From a virus (lineage: Duplodnaviria; Caudoviricetes), in the IMG/VR virus record IMGVR_UViG_3300017909_002576, positions 1 to 56,138 of that record: DNA of 56,138 bases. One strand, given 5' to 3'. The notes under the pieces are model-generated. The model was given only the letters and a program-made list of their open reading frames with translations, ran no database searches and was not told the origin of the DNA. Below, piece after piece: positions 5,241 to 34,176 of this stretch (position 1 is its first letter; each line of letters opens with the position of its first letter). The translations under genes and the position numbers were made by a program.

Positions 5241-5288
5241 ATCGTTCATCCTGTAAAGGACGGAAGTAGTCATAAGACGAAGGAACGC
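5241..5288 (+). ncRNA. Glutamine riboswitch (glnA RNA motif) aptamer 1
   Basis: ATCGTTCA-TCCT gtaa AGGA-CGGAAGTA-GTC ataa GAC-GAAGGAACGC. P1 is CGTTC/GAACG, with P2, the E-loop GAAGTA/GAA and P3 all matching the glnA motif. Confidence 0.85.
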
Positions 5289-5292
5289 CGAA

Positions 5293-5353
5293 ATCGTTCA
5301 TTCACTCTAAATGTAGCAGTGAACGGAAGTAGGTAATTGTACCGAAGGAACGC
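5293..5353 (+). ncRNA. Glutamine riboswitch (glnA RNA motif) aptamer 2
   Basis: ATCGTTCA-TTCACT ctaaatgtagc AGTGAA-CGGAAGTA-GGTA attg TACC-GAAGGAACGC. The core is identical to aptamer 1, with different but fully paired P2/P3. Confidence 0.85.
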
Positions 5354-5378
5354 ATCTAACTTTAATTAGGAGGATGTT

Positions 5379-5919: not shown

Positions 5920-5943
5920 TTCTTACTCCGATAATTTTTTATT

Positions 5944-5972
5944 ATTATATATTAAAATTTATTACTTGTCAA
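5944..5972 (-). promoter_or_regulatory. Sigma70-type promoter for ferredoxin
   Basis: TTGACA-17-TATAAT on the minus strand. Confidence 0.7.
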
Positions 5973-6573: not shown

Positions 6574-6601
6574 TTGACAATAACTAAGAATCGTGTATAA
6601 T
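6574..6601 (+). promoter_or_regulatory. Sigma70-type early promoter
   Basis: TTGACA-16-TATAAT. Confidence 0.75.
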
Positions 6602-7267: not shown

Positions 7268-7297
7268 ATGCATATAGTTAGAAATTAGGAGTAATTT

Positions 7298-28937: not shown

Positions 28938-29051
28938 TTGACAATATTTCAAAATTTGCTATACTAATAATATGAGTAAGGGAAATCACATTAAATTTTT
29001 TACAAAAAAGTTTAAAAAAGTGGTTGACAATATTAAAAAAGGTGCTATACT
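28938..29051 (+). promoter_or_regulatory. Two tandem sigma70-type early promoters
   Basis: TTGACA-16-TATACT at 28938-28965 and at 29024-29051, both with TGc extended -10. Confidence 0.8.
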
Positions 29052-29085
29052 ATTTGTATAGTTAGGAAATTAGGAGTAACAATAA

Positions 29086-30192
29086 ATGGAAACATTAAAC
29101 GTAAGACCCACAGATGTAGAGCCTGTAGTACACAGAGCAATGCAAGTAAATCGACCAATCTTCCTTTGGGGAGCACCGGGTATTGGTAAATCAGAACTTA
29201 TCCAAGGCATCGTAGATAGCGGAGCACTTGGTAATGCTATGCTCATTGACATGAGACTGGCACTTATGGAACCCACTGACTTGCGTGGATATCCTTTTAG
29301 GAATCCAGAAACTAACGCAATGGAGTGGTCCCCACCTGCAGACCTTCCATCTCAAGAACTTGCTGATCAGTATGATCACATTGTATTGTTCTTAGATGAG
29401 TTGAACTCTGCGCCTCCAAGTGTACAGGCGGCGGCTTATCAGTTAGTATTGAACAAGCGAGTTGGACAATACAAACTGCCTAAAAATGTTAGGATTGTTG
29501 CGGCAGGTAACCGTGAGACTGATAGAGGTGTAACTTACAGAATGCCAGCACCGTTGGCTAACAGGTTCCGACACATTAACATGGAAGTGAACTTTGAAGA
29601 TTGGTCTAAATGGGCAATCATGAATGACATTCACCCTGATGTTATTGGTTATTTGAGTTTTTCAAAAGGTGACTTGTTTGACTTTGATGCAAAAAGTAGT
29701 TCACAATCTTTTGCAACTCCAAGGTCGTGGTCCTTTGTAAGTGAAATTCTCGGAGCAGATGGCTTTGATTCAGCAAGTGCCTTCCAACAAAAGGCAGAAA
29801 TTGCAGGTGCTATTGGCGAAGGTATGGCAATCAAGTTTGTTGAACATAGAAAGATTGCAAGTAAACTTCCAAACCCAGAACAAATTTTAAATGGAGATGT
29901 TAAATCTTTAGACACCAAACTGTCCAAAGAAATTTCAGCAAAATATTCTTTAGTAGTTGGGTTAGCATATGAACTGAACGAAATGTTCAAAGAAAATGGT
30001 ATTGATGATACATTTAAAAAGTCTCTCAATAATACTGTTCGCTTCTCATATGATAACTTTGAACCAGAAATGGTAGTGTTCTTGTTCAAGACTATTATGA
30101 AAGATTACCAGATTAGGTTCAATGTGAGAACTGATCTTGAAAAAGATCTACACAAGACCTTCTCTGATAGATATACAAAGTATATCGCATAG
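29086..30192 (+). CDS. MoxR/dynein-related AAA+ ATPase
   Basis: GAPGIGKS, LFLDELN, AAGNR, LANRF, TPRSW. Confidence 0.9.
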   Translation: METLNVRPTDVEPVVHRAMQVNRPIFLWGAPGIGKSELIQGIVDSGALGNAMLIDMRLALMEPTDLRGYPFRNPETNAMEWSPPADLPSQELADQYDHIVLFLDELNSAPPSVQAAAYQLVLNKRVGQYKLPKNVRIVAAGNRETDRGVTYRMPAPLANRFRHINMEVNFEDWSKWAIMNDIHPDVIGYLSFSKGDLFDFDAKSSSQSFATPRSWSFVSEILGADGFDSASAFQQKAEIAGAIGEGMAIKFVEHRKIASKLPNPEQILNGDVKSLDTKLSKEISAKYSLVVGLAYELNEMFKENGIDDTFKKSLNNTVRFSYDNFEPEMVVFLFKTIMKDYQIRFNVRTDLEKDLHKTFSDRYTKYIA

Positions 30193-30200
30193 TTTAAAAC

Positions 30201-30246
30201 CCTTGTGCACCTACCTATGTTACTCCCTACCTAAGAATGCACAAGG
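30201..30246 (+). ncRNA. Candidate 3'UTR small RNA with an anti-RBS loop
   Basis: 9-bp stem CCTTGTGCA/TGCACAAGG enclosing a 28-nt loop with TATGTTACTCC flanked by two CCTACCTA; followed directly by a terminator. Confidence 0.45.
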
Positions 30247-30247
30247 T

Positions 30248-30277
30248 GACACCCGGACTTTTGTCCGGGTGTTTTTT
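30248..30277 (+). terminator. Intrinsic terminator
   Basis: GACACCCGGAC-TTTT-GTCCGGGTGTT plus T run. Confidence 0.9.
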
Positions 30278-30289
30278 ATTTAAATCCGG

Positions 30290-30317
30290 TTGACAAACAT
30301 ACAAAATCTGCTATAAT
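30290..30317 (+). promoter_or_regulatory. Sigma70-type early promoter
   Basis: TTGACA-16-TATAAT with extended -10. Confidence 0.8.
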
Positions 30318-30344
30318 ATATACATATAGTTAGGAGTAACAAAT

Positions 30345-31682
30345 ATGACAGATACAATGGCTACAAAGAATACAGGTACAGCGGCAGATCGAGCCAGTAA
30401 AACAAAAGTTGAAATACCTGTAACTTCTTTAACCTCAAAAGAAATTGAGGATAAGTTAATTAAAGCAAGAATTGAGATGCTAATTTCAGCACCATTTTTT
30501 GGTAATCTTGCTACACGTTTACATTTCAAAGATGCTACAGAATGGTGTCCTACTGCCGCTACAGACGGCAAGTATTTTTATTACAATCGTAATTTTGTTG
30601 CCGCACTTAGTGATGCAGAAATTATTTTCTTAATGGGACACGAAGTATTACATTGTGTGTATGATCATATGGATGCTACTCGTAGAGGCGATCGTAATCC
30701 AATGCTTTGGAACATAGCAAATGATTATGTAATTAATGCAGATTTGATTGATGCTAATATTGGCGAGCAAATAAAGATTGTTGATATTTGTTTTGATTGG
30801 AAATATCGAGGTAAGATATCAGAAGAAATTTACGATGAACTGTTTGACGAAATGGACAAGAATGGTCAAATACAATATGTAGATACTTTTGATGTACACT
30901 TAGATCGTGAGGAAGGCGATGACGAAGGTGCCGGTGCTTCTGCTAATACAGATGGCGGAGATGACGAAGAAGGCAAAGATGCTCCTGCAAAATATACACA
31001 AGAAGAAAAAGACAAGATTAAGCAAGAGTTCCAGAATGCTGTAATGCAATCTGCTAAGGCGGCAGGTGCTGGTAATTTACCTAATGGTGTTAAAAGAATA
31101 TTAGACAAATGGCTTAATCCTCAACTTGATTGGAGACAACTTCTTGCTATGCAGATTCAAAGTGTAATTAAAAGTGATTACACAATGATGAATCCAAGTA
31201 GAAAAGGACGTGAGCAAGGATTCTATTTGCCAGGTATGGATCGTGAGACTACAATTGATATTGTGTGTGCATTGGATATGTCTGGTAGTATTTTAGACGA
31301 ACAAGCCACAGACTTCCTTAGCGAAGTATATGGTATAATGAGTCAATACAGCGACTTTCGTATTCACTTGTTTTGCTTTGATACAGAGGTTCATAACCCA
31401 CAAACATTTACTGAGCAAAACTTAGAAGAAATTAAAGAGTACGAACTTGCTGGAGGCGGCGGTACTGAGTTTGATTGTTGTTTTGATTACATGAAAGAAG
31501 AAGGTATTGTACCTCAGAAATTTGTAATGTTTACAGACGGCTACCCTTGGGGCAGTTGGGGTGATGAATCTTACTGTGATTCATTGTTTATCGTACACGG
31601 CGGATATGGTGGTAGTACACCAGAAGCACCTTTTGGTATAACTGTACCATATACAAGAGACGAAAGTGGACTTATTGGATGA
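30345..31682 (+). CDS. HExxH metallopeptidase-like + vWA protein (DUF2201 type)
   Basis: TAATDG, HEVLH, WNIANDYVIN, MIDAS DMSGS, GGGGT, FTDG. The usual partner of the upstream AAA ATPase. Confidence 0.85.
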   Translation: MTDTMATKNTGTAADRASKTKVEIPVTSLTSKEIEDKLIKARIEMLISAPFFGNLATRLHFKDATEWCPTAATDGKYFYYNRNFVAALSDAEIIFLMGHEVLHCVYDHMDATRRGDRNPMLWNIANDYVINADLIDANIGEQIKIVDICFDWKYRGKISEEIYDELFDEMDKNGQIQYVDTFDVHLDREEGDDEGAGASANTDGGDDEEGKDAPAKYTQEEKDKIKQEFQNAVMQSAKAAGAGNLPNGVKRILDKWLNPQLDWRQLLAMQIQSVIKSDYTMMNPSRKGREQGFYLPGMDRETTIDIVCALDMSGSILDEQATDFLSEVYGIMSQYSDFRIHLFCFDTEVHNPQTFTEQNLEEIKEYELAGGGGTEFDCCFDYMKEEGIVPQKFVMFTDGYPWGSWGDESYCDSLFIVHGGYGGSTPEAPFGITVPYTRDESGLIG

Positions 31683-33751: not shown

Positions 33752-33793
33752 GTTACATGGGGCAAGGACGCCCTATTTTTCACTAAAAACAGG

Positions 33794-33821
33794 TTGACAA
33801 ATCATATAAATTTGCTATAAT
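33794..33821 (+). promoter_or_regulatory. Sigma70-type early promoter
   Basis: TTGACA-16-TATAAT with extended -10. Confidence 0.8.
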
Positions 33822-33846
33822 ATATAGTAAATGTTAGGAGTAACAT

Positions 33847-34176
33847 ATGATTGAGATACTGCAAGAAGTAACTGATTGGGGCAAATACAAGGTAAACAAT
33901 GGTGTTTATCATGTAAATGGTGCCGGCAAATTAGTTGCATACCAAGTTAACCAAAAGTCAGAAGTACAAGTTCTTAATGTGCCAAGCACAAAATTTAGTA
34001 AAGCAAGACGTAAGTTTGTAAAAATAGGCGAAAGAGAAGAAGAGTTAGCAAGTCATATTATTGAAGTTAAAGGTTCTACAGGTAATACTTATTATGTAGA
34101 TACAATTAAAAAGACTTGTACTTGTCCAGGTTTTACATACAGAGGGAATTGTAAGCATGTTAAAGAATATTGTTAG
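33847..34176 (+). CDS. SWIM zinc-finger protein
   Basis: VKGSTGNTYYV...CTCPGFTYRGNCKH. Confidence 0.8.
   Translation: MIEILQEVTDWGKYKVNNGVYHVNGAGKLVAYQVNQKSEVQVLNVPSTKFSKARRKFVKIGEREEELASHIIEVKGSTGNTYYVDTIKKTCTCPGFTYRGNCKHVKEYC

Follow-up and report, generated by a model that had tools for sequence, protein, structure and literature searches.

A conserved hairpin 3' of a phage MoxR-like ATPase gene carries a loop that co-varies with the ribosome-binding site of the same gene

The AAA gene and its 3' hairpin

The DNA analyzed here is a virus record of 56,138 bp (IMG/VR IMGVR_UViG_3300017909_002576), called the window in its full length below; it has 35% G+C and a CheckV completeness of 12%, and the DNA runs that hold this stretch carry seawater, marine or estuary metagenome labels. 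On its plus strand lies a gene for a MoxR-like AAA+ ATPase (the AAA gene), followed by a hairpin with an open, pyrimidine-rich loop and by an intrinsic terminator (Table 1). The loop is complementary to the ribosome-binding site (RBS) of the same gene, and in related phages loop and RBS change together. The closest cultured relatives of the AAA protein belong to jumbo phages, Pseudomonas PA5oct in the first place (47.5% identity), then Phosso, Bacillus phage G and Atu_ph07.

Flanked by the promoter at 29024-29051 and the terminator at 30248-30283, the AAA gene appears to be a self-contained unit with its own promoter, a leader of ~28 nt holding the Shine-Dalgarno (SD) sequence, the open reading frame (ORF), a 3' untranslated region (3'UTR) of 86 nt (stop codon at 30192, U-run ending at ~30278) and the terminator. 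The latter would serve as a common 3' end for the AAA mRNA and for any RNA derived from its 3'UTR. No promoter-like site with at least 9/12 matches was found on the plus strand between 30034 and 30289, so that a separate small RNA (sRNA) would require processing.

In the hairpin, the arm CCTTGTGCA (30201-30209) pairs with TGCACAAGG (30238-30246), the loop contains a direct repeat with copies of CCTACCTA at 30210 and 30226, and a single nucleotide separates the hairpin from the terminator. The fold has an energy of -33.1 kcal/mol (z = -6.1), and none of 200 shuffled sequences folded as well; the fold of the minus strand is stable too (-37.9 kcal/mol), and the terminator U-run exists on the plus strand only. 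Over the hairpin no family of Rfam 15 reached its gathering score, the best scores between 30100 and 30350 being those of MicC on the minus strand (29.1 bits, gathering 90) and of anti-hemB (20.9 bits, gathering 49.5). The only matches at gathering level in the window lie elsewhere and are two tandem glutamine riboswitch aptamers, at 5241-5291 and 5293-5356 on the plus strand (RF01739, 61.4 and 59.4 bits, gathering 35).

The sequence GGAGTAACA(TA), an exact complement of a stretch of the loop, is present at the RBS of AAA and at those of two further genes, vWA and SWIM. Within the window GGAGTAACA occurs four times (29073, 30333 and 33837 on the plus strand, 30218-30226 on the minus strand) against 0.4 expected, and none of 100 shuffles reached four; the three RBS copies are not independent, because the promoter-leader cassettes of AAA, vWA and SWIM are paralogous (30272-30344 and 33776-33848 being 80% identical). 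In RNAduplex the loop and the AAA leader paired with -18.2 kcal/mol, the loop being taken, here and in the test of translation initiation regions (TIRs) below, as 30210-30239, which includes 2 nt of the 3' arm. An earlier note on this DNA, made from the letters alone, had described the 9-bp stem, the loop and the terminator, an exact loop complement at the SWIM RBS, 9-nt matches at the AAA and vWA RBSs and two GGAGTAA sites. All of them are present where it placed them: the SWIM complement measures 11 nt (33837-33847), the 9-nt matches lie at 29073 and 30333, and GGAGTAA was found at 7288 (+) and, in the fdxA leader, at 5923 (-). AAA is the only one of the 69 window genes whose leader matches its own 3' region over at least 9 nt, so such complementarity is not a general design of this phage. 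That the match goes beyond chance is indicated by its conservation and co-variation in relatives, not by the window alone.

Table 1. Features of the AAA unit and of the neighboring genes, with positions in the window.
Feature	Position	Strand	Details
Upstream sigma70-type promoter, possible second AAA start	28938..28965	+	TTGACA-16-TATACT, 11/12 matches
AAA sigma70-type promoter	29024..29051	+	TTGACA-16-TATACT; AAA genes of relatives likewise have a consensus-type promoter, and a short leader
Predicted 5' leader of AAA mRNA	29058..29085	+	~28 nt, AUAGUUAGGAAAUUAGGAGUAACAAUAA; transcription start site (TSS) predicted only
AAA SD/spacer, loop partner	29073-29081	+	GGAGTAACA, within the AAA leader
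MoxR-like AAA+ ATPase gene	29086..30192	+	368 aa; Pfam AAA_5 / AAA_3 / Sigma54_activat
Conserved 3'UTR hairpin	30201..30246	+	9-bp stem 30201-30209 / 30238-30246 closing a 28-nt loop
Open pyrimidine-rich loop	30210..30237	+	28 nt; RNA CCUACCUA-UGUUACUC-CCUACCUA-AGAA; DNA CCTACCTA-TGTTACTC-CCTACCTA-AGAA
Anti-RBS core	30216..30226	+	UAUGUUACUCC; complements the AAA and vWA RBSs over 9 nt and the SWIM RBS over 11 nt
Intrinsic terminator	30248..30283	+	11-bp stem (30248-30273), 7 G-C pairs, tetraloop, U-run
vWA RBS, possible trans target	30333..30341	+	GGAGTAACA; RNAduplex -14.8 kcal/mol
vWA gene	30345-31682	+	DUF2201 metallopeptidase/VWA-like protein (Pfam); next after AAA
SWIM RBS, possible trans target	33837..33847	+	GGAGTAACATA; 11-nt match, ends on the A of ATG; RNAduplex -17.0 kcal/mol
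SWIM zinc finger gene	start 33847	+	Pfam

Conservation of the hairpin and co-variation of loop and RBS

A search with the AAA protein gave 59 IMG/VR loci, and the 3' end was inspected in 57 of them, L034 and L059 being omitted since the match reaches the locus end. A hairpin of the same kind lies directly 3' of the AAA stop codon in 39 of the 57, and further loci came from later scans; the remaining 18, all with 50-54% protein identity, have a plain terminator or none. The 24-nt core of the loop is invariant, letter for letter, in 32 IMG/VR contigs with one copy each, including six that the protein search had missed, all of which (6/6) carry the AAA C-terminus just upstream. The loop of class A (see below) is unchanged across AAA identities of 69-86%. 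There was no exact copy of the loop in the bacterial and archaeal genomes of the collection, and cultured phages lack the loop core apart from one 17-nt chance match; in PA5oct, whose protein is the closest among cultured relatives, nothing but a terminator follows the ATPase gene. A different conserved 3' hairpin (...GGAGGCAGG...CCGTAAGTCCTCC) was seen in the first ~60 nt past the stop codon in L108, L272-L276, L281 and L295 (AAA 49-52% identity), where the RBS is not complementary to it.

The stem is variable yet remains paired while the loop is fixed (CCUUGUGCA, AAACUCGAGUA, AAACUAGAGA, AAAAUCCUUAUAC, GGGUUGAGC and others). When 34 distinct relatives were folded individually, all of them showed the stem, the open loop and a terminator-like hairpin, the latter followed by CACC instead of a U-run in ~7 of the 34. 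A covariance model built from nine gap-free sequences gave one match per locus in 32 of 67 sources and a single match in the window. In its alignment, which is fitted to the model and thus favors the structure, all nine stem pairs have changes on both sides and pairing holds in 93% of cells, compared with 61% after shuffling (0/500 shuffles reached the real value) and 27-45% when the partner was slid by 1-3 columns; the folds of single sequences are independent of this alignment. RNAalifold on a plain MAFFT alignment missed the stem, as indels in the loop misaligned the 3' arms. The stems contain 12 G.U cells, which would be A.C on the other strand, and together with the one-sided U-run they point to the plus-strand RNA as the functional form. 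An A/U-rich UUUAAAA precedes the stem in many relatives.

The hairpin is a real, conserved RNA. We regard it as a new, phage-borne RNA family, presented by a hairpin beside a terminator, that is common within a single clade of marine jumbo phages not yet cultured. In L012 (4192-4390), and also in L007, L009, L011, L013, L023 and L033, a second conserved stretch of ~115 nt lies between the AAA terminator and a tRNA-Arg(TCT) gene (4314-4390 in L012); its fold is no better than that of shuffles (z = -1.5), and in relatives of this type the vWA gene follows ~1.1 kb beyond it.

The AAA leaders were compared with the loops of their own loci after omitting loci with less than 80-90 nt past the stop codon and collapsing identical leader/loop pairs. 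In 48 loci, which yield 35 distinct pairs, the 25 nt that precede the AAA ATG match the own loop by exact complementarity over 7-12 nt at the longest, and lineages with an altered AAA RBS (GGAGUGAUGUA, GGAGUAGUA, GUAGGAGUAA, AAGGUAGGU, CAGGAGAA) hold the matching complement in their 3'UTR. Class A combines the loop UGUUACUCC with the RBS GGAGUAAC(A); the loop and RBS are UACAUCACUCCU and AGGAGUGAUGUA in L096 (12 nt), UACUACUCCU and AGGAGUAGUA in L038 (10 nt), UUACUCCUAC and GUAGGAGUAA in class E (L031, L062, L099, L104 and others; 10 nt), and ACCUACCUU and AAGGUAGGU in L097 and L228 (9 nt). Class H, at ~55% protein identity, has a mini hairpin overlapping the stop codon, GCCUAG-UUCUCCUG-CUAGG, in which UUCUCCUG(C) complements the RBS (G)CAGGAGAA over 8-10 nt. 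The AAA proteins of L096 and L035 are 90% identical, and here both RBS and loop differ, in a matching way.

Permuting the loop classes against the leaders, 12 of 5,040 arrangements of seven classes (28 loci) reached the observed summed match (p = 0.0024; p = 0.014 for energy), and 2 of 40,320 did so with eight classes (37 loci), for which the initial 80 nt of every 3'UTR were taken without selection, the true assignment being among the two; these figures, which cover those loci and not all, are indicative, because the classes were drawn by eye after the data had been seen and the members within a class are related. The match to the own loop was at least as long as the cross match in 7/7 classes, with a margin of only 0.2 nt in class A. 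Moreover, in the 122-kb contig of L096 (G001) GGAGTGATG occurs exactly twice, at the AAA RBS and as its complement in the loop, and in the 63-kb contig of L038 (G002) GGAGTAGTA is likewise found at these two places only. In several lineages the loop flank also complements a second stretch, located at the extreme 5' terminus of the leader: L035 (8+8 nt), L098 (8+8 nt) and L102 (9+9 nt).

An SD-like sequence of GGGAG(A/U) type (for example GGGAGAGG and GGGAGTAAGGG) was also noticed between the stop codon and the hairpin, within the first 10-15 nt past the former, in L005-L011, L023, L033, L101 and L209. It complements the loop, RNAfold pairs the two in L008, L033, L035 and L101, and it is absent from the window; leader and SD-like sequence might be rivals for the loop, perhaps according to whether a ribosome occupies the stop codon.

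Proposed pairing and competing explanations

Structure, strand, conservation and the co-variation of the loop with its own RBS are observed here; from them we infer that the two pair in vivo and that this represses AAA. A co-varying complement on the same strand, joining the SD to an exposed loop in the 3'UTR of the same message, is most simply accounted for by RNA-RNA pairing that hides the SD. In this reading, which we hold to be somewhat better than an even bet, the centre of the loop would pair with the SD/spacer of its own AAA message, and in several lineages the loop flank would also pair with a UAGGU-type module at the 5' end of the leader. The contact may form in cis, inside one molecule once its 3' end has been made, or in trans, with a stable hairpin-terminator fragment pairing between molecules, the first resembling icaR and the second OppZ and CarZ (see below). 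By either route the SD would be hidden and translation of the ATPase lowered, and the loop-leader duplex may become a substrate of RNase III.

Folding of whole messages is consistent with such a contact. The minimum free energy (MFE) structure of the 1205-nt window mRNA pairs GGAGUAACA with UGUUACUCC, and leader-loop pairing was present in the MFE structures of ~1.2-kb mRNAs from 9 of 14 homologues, over 9-18 bp (window 9, L005 11, L007 13, L014 16, L024 17, L031 18, L035 16, L038 17, L102 16).

Several results weigh against SD hiding by the loop, besides the drawing of the classes after the fact. In the other five MFE structures (L039, L096, L097, L098 and L104) leader-loop pairs are absent, and with a shuffled loop 11 of 36 folds still contained at least 4 such pairs, compared with 6/6 for the same six mRNAs with the real loop, which means that composition (a pyrimidine-rich loop and purine-rich leaders) explains part of the signal, not all of it. 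Inside the window a 9-nt match is unexceptional, since leaders and 3' regions combined arbitrarily share at least 9 nt in ~1% of cases. An RNAduplex scan of both strands found at least 30 window sites that beat the RBS sites in energy; the top 30 non-self sites lie mostly within ORFs and do not include the AAA, vWA and SWIM RBSs, so that a ranking by energy alone misses these targets. Class A shows no advantage of own over cross matches (8.2 nt with its own loop and 8.5-9.1 nt with those of classes E or G), and its loop stays invariant while the AAA RBS varies (matches of 7-11 nt), suggesting other constraints such as extra targets or a protein. L248 has kept the class H 3'UTR with an RBS match of only ~5 nt. 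As for expression, segments of the AAA gene are present among contigs of four RNA libraries, in two cases identical to the window, and the hairpins of relatives are covered as well; contigs X16 and X17 start at 29051 and 28967, each a few bases from a predicted -10 box, but this is a weak hint, as these are assembled contigs in which DNA is possible, whose ends and strand are unreadable and whose gaps in coverage carry no meaning. Finally, repression is the direction we deduce for the effect, and pairing at the 5' end could instead stabilize the message.

In this phage and in close relatives the leaders of vWA and SWIM are near copies of the AAA leader; they would be caught in trans by the same loop and are here probable additional targets. 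MoxR ATPases as a rule act together with VWA proteins, so that a brake common to both genes would make sense. A self-regulating message with a small regulon (AAA, vWA and SWIM) fits better than a switch of the whole early class. It is conceivable, if speculative and on balance doubtful, that the message times itself: it would be translated until its own 3' end is made, the loop would then close on the leader and SD, and the released fragment would silence vWA and SWIM in trans. Were this true, RBS and loop would form a private, fast-evolving pair of addresses, differing even between phages with 90% protein identity, and these uncultured marine jumbo phages would possess a feedback device made of RNA only and open to programming.

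Around the AAA gene the DNA is divided into short units, every one of them led by a sigma70-type promoter that is perfect or nearly so; six such promoters are on the plus strand between 24000 and 40000. The whole window has 11 promoter-leader cassettes, with perfect or near-perfect TTGACA-N16/17-TATAAT promoters and short leaders, at 6574, 7240, 8959, 9912, 24582, 28537, 28938, 29024, 30290 and 33794 on the plus strand and at 5972 on the minus strand. The genes behind them are presumed to be early by promoter type only.

The earlier note had proposed that one RNA could shut off this whole class of early mRNAs, that is, a trans-acting phage sRNA of ~75-85 nt (hairpin plus terminator) binding many early RBSs or leaders as an early-to-late switch. 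We consider this unlikely. It would agree with the complements of 9-11 nt at three RBSs of the window and with the paralogy of their leaders; in L014 and L018 the AAA leader hardly differs from the SWIM leader, which indicates concerted evolution, and the SWIM RBS keeps the same 11-mer in L021 and G006. The invariance of the class A loop over a wide range of AAA identities is also what several targets would lead one to expect, and CCUAC modules in the loop flank complement UAGGU/AUGUAGG near the TSS of other early leaders, such as those of two genes upstream in L096. On the other hand, the 9-mer is present in just 3/11 consensus-promoter leaders of the window, the co-varying core is unique to the AAA RBS in G001 and G002, vWA leaders across lineages match their own loop over 5-9 nt only, and the hairpin has no promoter of at least 9/12 matches immediately before it. 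Five class A contigs together contain 32 sites of GGAGTAAC, compared with 3 for the reversed control; of its 11 sites in the 250-kb contig G003, however, 9 are away from any RBS, one is the loop itself and a single one is an RBS.

Binding of the loop was computed with RNAduplex for the 67 full-length TIRs among the 69 of the window, against 500 shuffled loops. Its advantage over shuffles was slight: 11 TIRs reached -14.5 kcal/mol or better compared with 5.5 in shuffles (p = 0.04), the mean gave p = 0.19 and the top five p = 0.26, which speaks also against the preferred pairing. What stands of the earlier interpretation is the plus-strand RNA at the end of the AAA message, the strongly selected single-stranded loop and the SD/leader complementarity; the comparison with related phages, which the note had suggested, showed the loop to be conserved and to co-vary with the AAA RBS. 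The shut-off of an entire early class is overstated, given the few leaders with the 9-mer and the weak enrichment over shuffles. A SWIM protein search in G001 and G002 gave no match, and hence the SWIM leaders of classes D and F are outside the comparison.

Two further observations concern sequences beyond the AAA unit. In L096 the leaders of the two upstream consensus-promoter genes (1989-1998 and 2219-2228) start with AUGUAGGAUG, which complements the 5' half of the L096 loop and 2 nt of its stem. In G006, the 13-mer GGTAGGGAGTAAC (G006:C1:3981-3993, L183) is the reverse complement of the loop core, including an extra G that the RBS sites lack; it has no adjacent start codon, its rough chance expectation in the contig is ~0.04, and the window has no counterpart.

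The same 5'-3' pairing might have the opposite effect, the loop clamping the 5' end and the SD against nucleases that need the 5' end or cleave at the SD, and so stabilizing the mRNA, as in hbs (PMC5737220, as far as its excerpted text goes). The 5'-terminal module of the leaders of L035, L098 and L102 complements the loop, and MFE folds take in the 5'-terminal nucleotides of the leader, as this explanation would require. The SD itself, however, is the most conserved and co-varying part, its occlusion should block initiation, and class H pairs with the SD only; we give a stabilizing effect a small chance.

Alternatively, the loop could be the binding site of a protein (either the ATPase itself or an RNA-binding protein of phage or host origin), or the hairpin a mere 3' stabilizer, with an incidental RBS match. 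An invariant 24-nt loop with two CCUACCUA repeats over a variable stem has the classic look of a protein-recognition site, and class A lacks an own-over-cross advantage. Both versions seem very improbable to us: they leave unexplained the exact complement in lineages with other RBSs (2/40,320 permutations), its constant location on the same strand and the 9-mers unique to RBS and loop in G001 and G002, and a simple stabilizer does not need a conserved loop.

Last, an element acting as DNA (inverted repeats flanking AAA as an operator pair, recombination site or cassette ends) or a minus-strand transcript serving as a decoy RBS, the latter raised in the earlier note and rejected here, has next to no credit with us, for although RBS and loop core form an inverted repeat with ~1.1 kb between its halves, a stable fold exists for the minus strand and the neighbors of the AAA unit differ between relatives, the 12 G.U cells would become A.C and the U-run is lost on that strand, the left repeat lies inside the unit downstream of the promoter, a co-varying presentation in a hairpin loop has no role in double-stranded DNA, and no start codon follows the minus-strand 'RBS'.

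Comparison with known systems

The Betaproteobacteria toxic sRNA (RF02278) and anti-hemB (RF02837) are sRNAs with C/U-rich anti-SD loops. They resemble the phage element in presenting a pyrimidine-rich loop on a hairpin followed by a terminator, and they were the only sRNA-type weak Rfam matches on the plus strand; the phage element, however, scores 18.0 bits with the first (gathering 50) and 20.9 bits with the second (gathering 49.5) and is no member of either, and both are stand-alone bacterial genes.

The closest precedent for hiding of the SD is icaR of Staphylococcus aureus, in which a UCCCCUG motif of the 3'UTR pairs with the SD, blocks initiation and gives a substrate for RNase III; the excerpted text of the paper presents this 5'-3' UTR pairing as a singular example (PMC3868564). 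Both cases have a pyrimidine-rich anti-SD motif in the 3'UTR facing the SD of the same mRNA, here over 9 nt in the window and over 7-12 co-varying nucleotides in relatives. They differ in that the icaR 3'UTR is long, the excerpts dealing with 3'UTRs of more than 100 nt (PMC3868564), whereas that of the phage AAA gene, at 86 nt, is shorter than this. In the phage the motif is displayed by a hairpin loop of 6-30 nt that immediately precedes the terminator, two other genes of this phage have the same target sequence, there is no homology, and the phage case is known here from sequence alone. No phage example of SD-hiding 5'-3' UTR pairing turned up in the literature, as excerpted, which is not proof of absence.

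OppZ and CarZ of Vibrio cholerae are cut by RNase E from operon 3' ends and base-pair with the transcripts they come from, whose translation they inhibit in a negative feedback on the RNA level; in addition, OppZ causes Rho termination and acts at the suboperonic level, according to the excerpts of PMC7398697. As in the phage, where the likeness is one of sequence, these are 3'-end RNAs that carry the parent's terminator and are complementary to the parent transcript. OppZ acts within an operon (PMC7398697, same excerpts), whereas the phage target would be the first and only RBS of a monocistronic unit. In hbs of Bacillus subtilis, contact between the 5' and 3' UTRs modulates the action of RNase Y and J1 and the stability of the message (PMC5737220, excerpted text); the likeness lies in a long-range contact between both UTRs of one bacterial mRNA, which there governs ribonuclease access, and the difference in the phage partner, which is the SD itself, with no homology between the two.

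If our reading is correct, the logic of icaR now extends across a whole clade of uncultured marine jumbo phages, in which at least eight sequence classes show a joint change of RBS and 3' loop. These classes amount to natural sets of compensatory mutations, and since the promoters and SDs are of sigma70/GGAG type, the natural pairs are directly testable in reporters of E. coli type. They might also furnish a compact, orthogonal, RNA-only part for setting translation levels, and those who annotate phage genomes should bear in mind that regulatory RNAs may lie in the 'terminator regions' behind early genes. In comparison with icaR, OppZ, CarZ and hbs, the mechanism is of a known but rare kind; the novelty lies in the phage RNA family and in the unusual clarity with which its sequences record that RBS and 3' loop have co-evolved.

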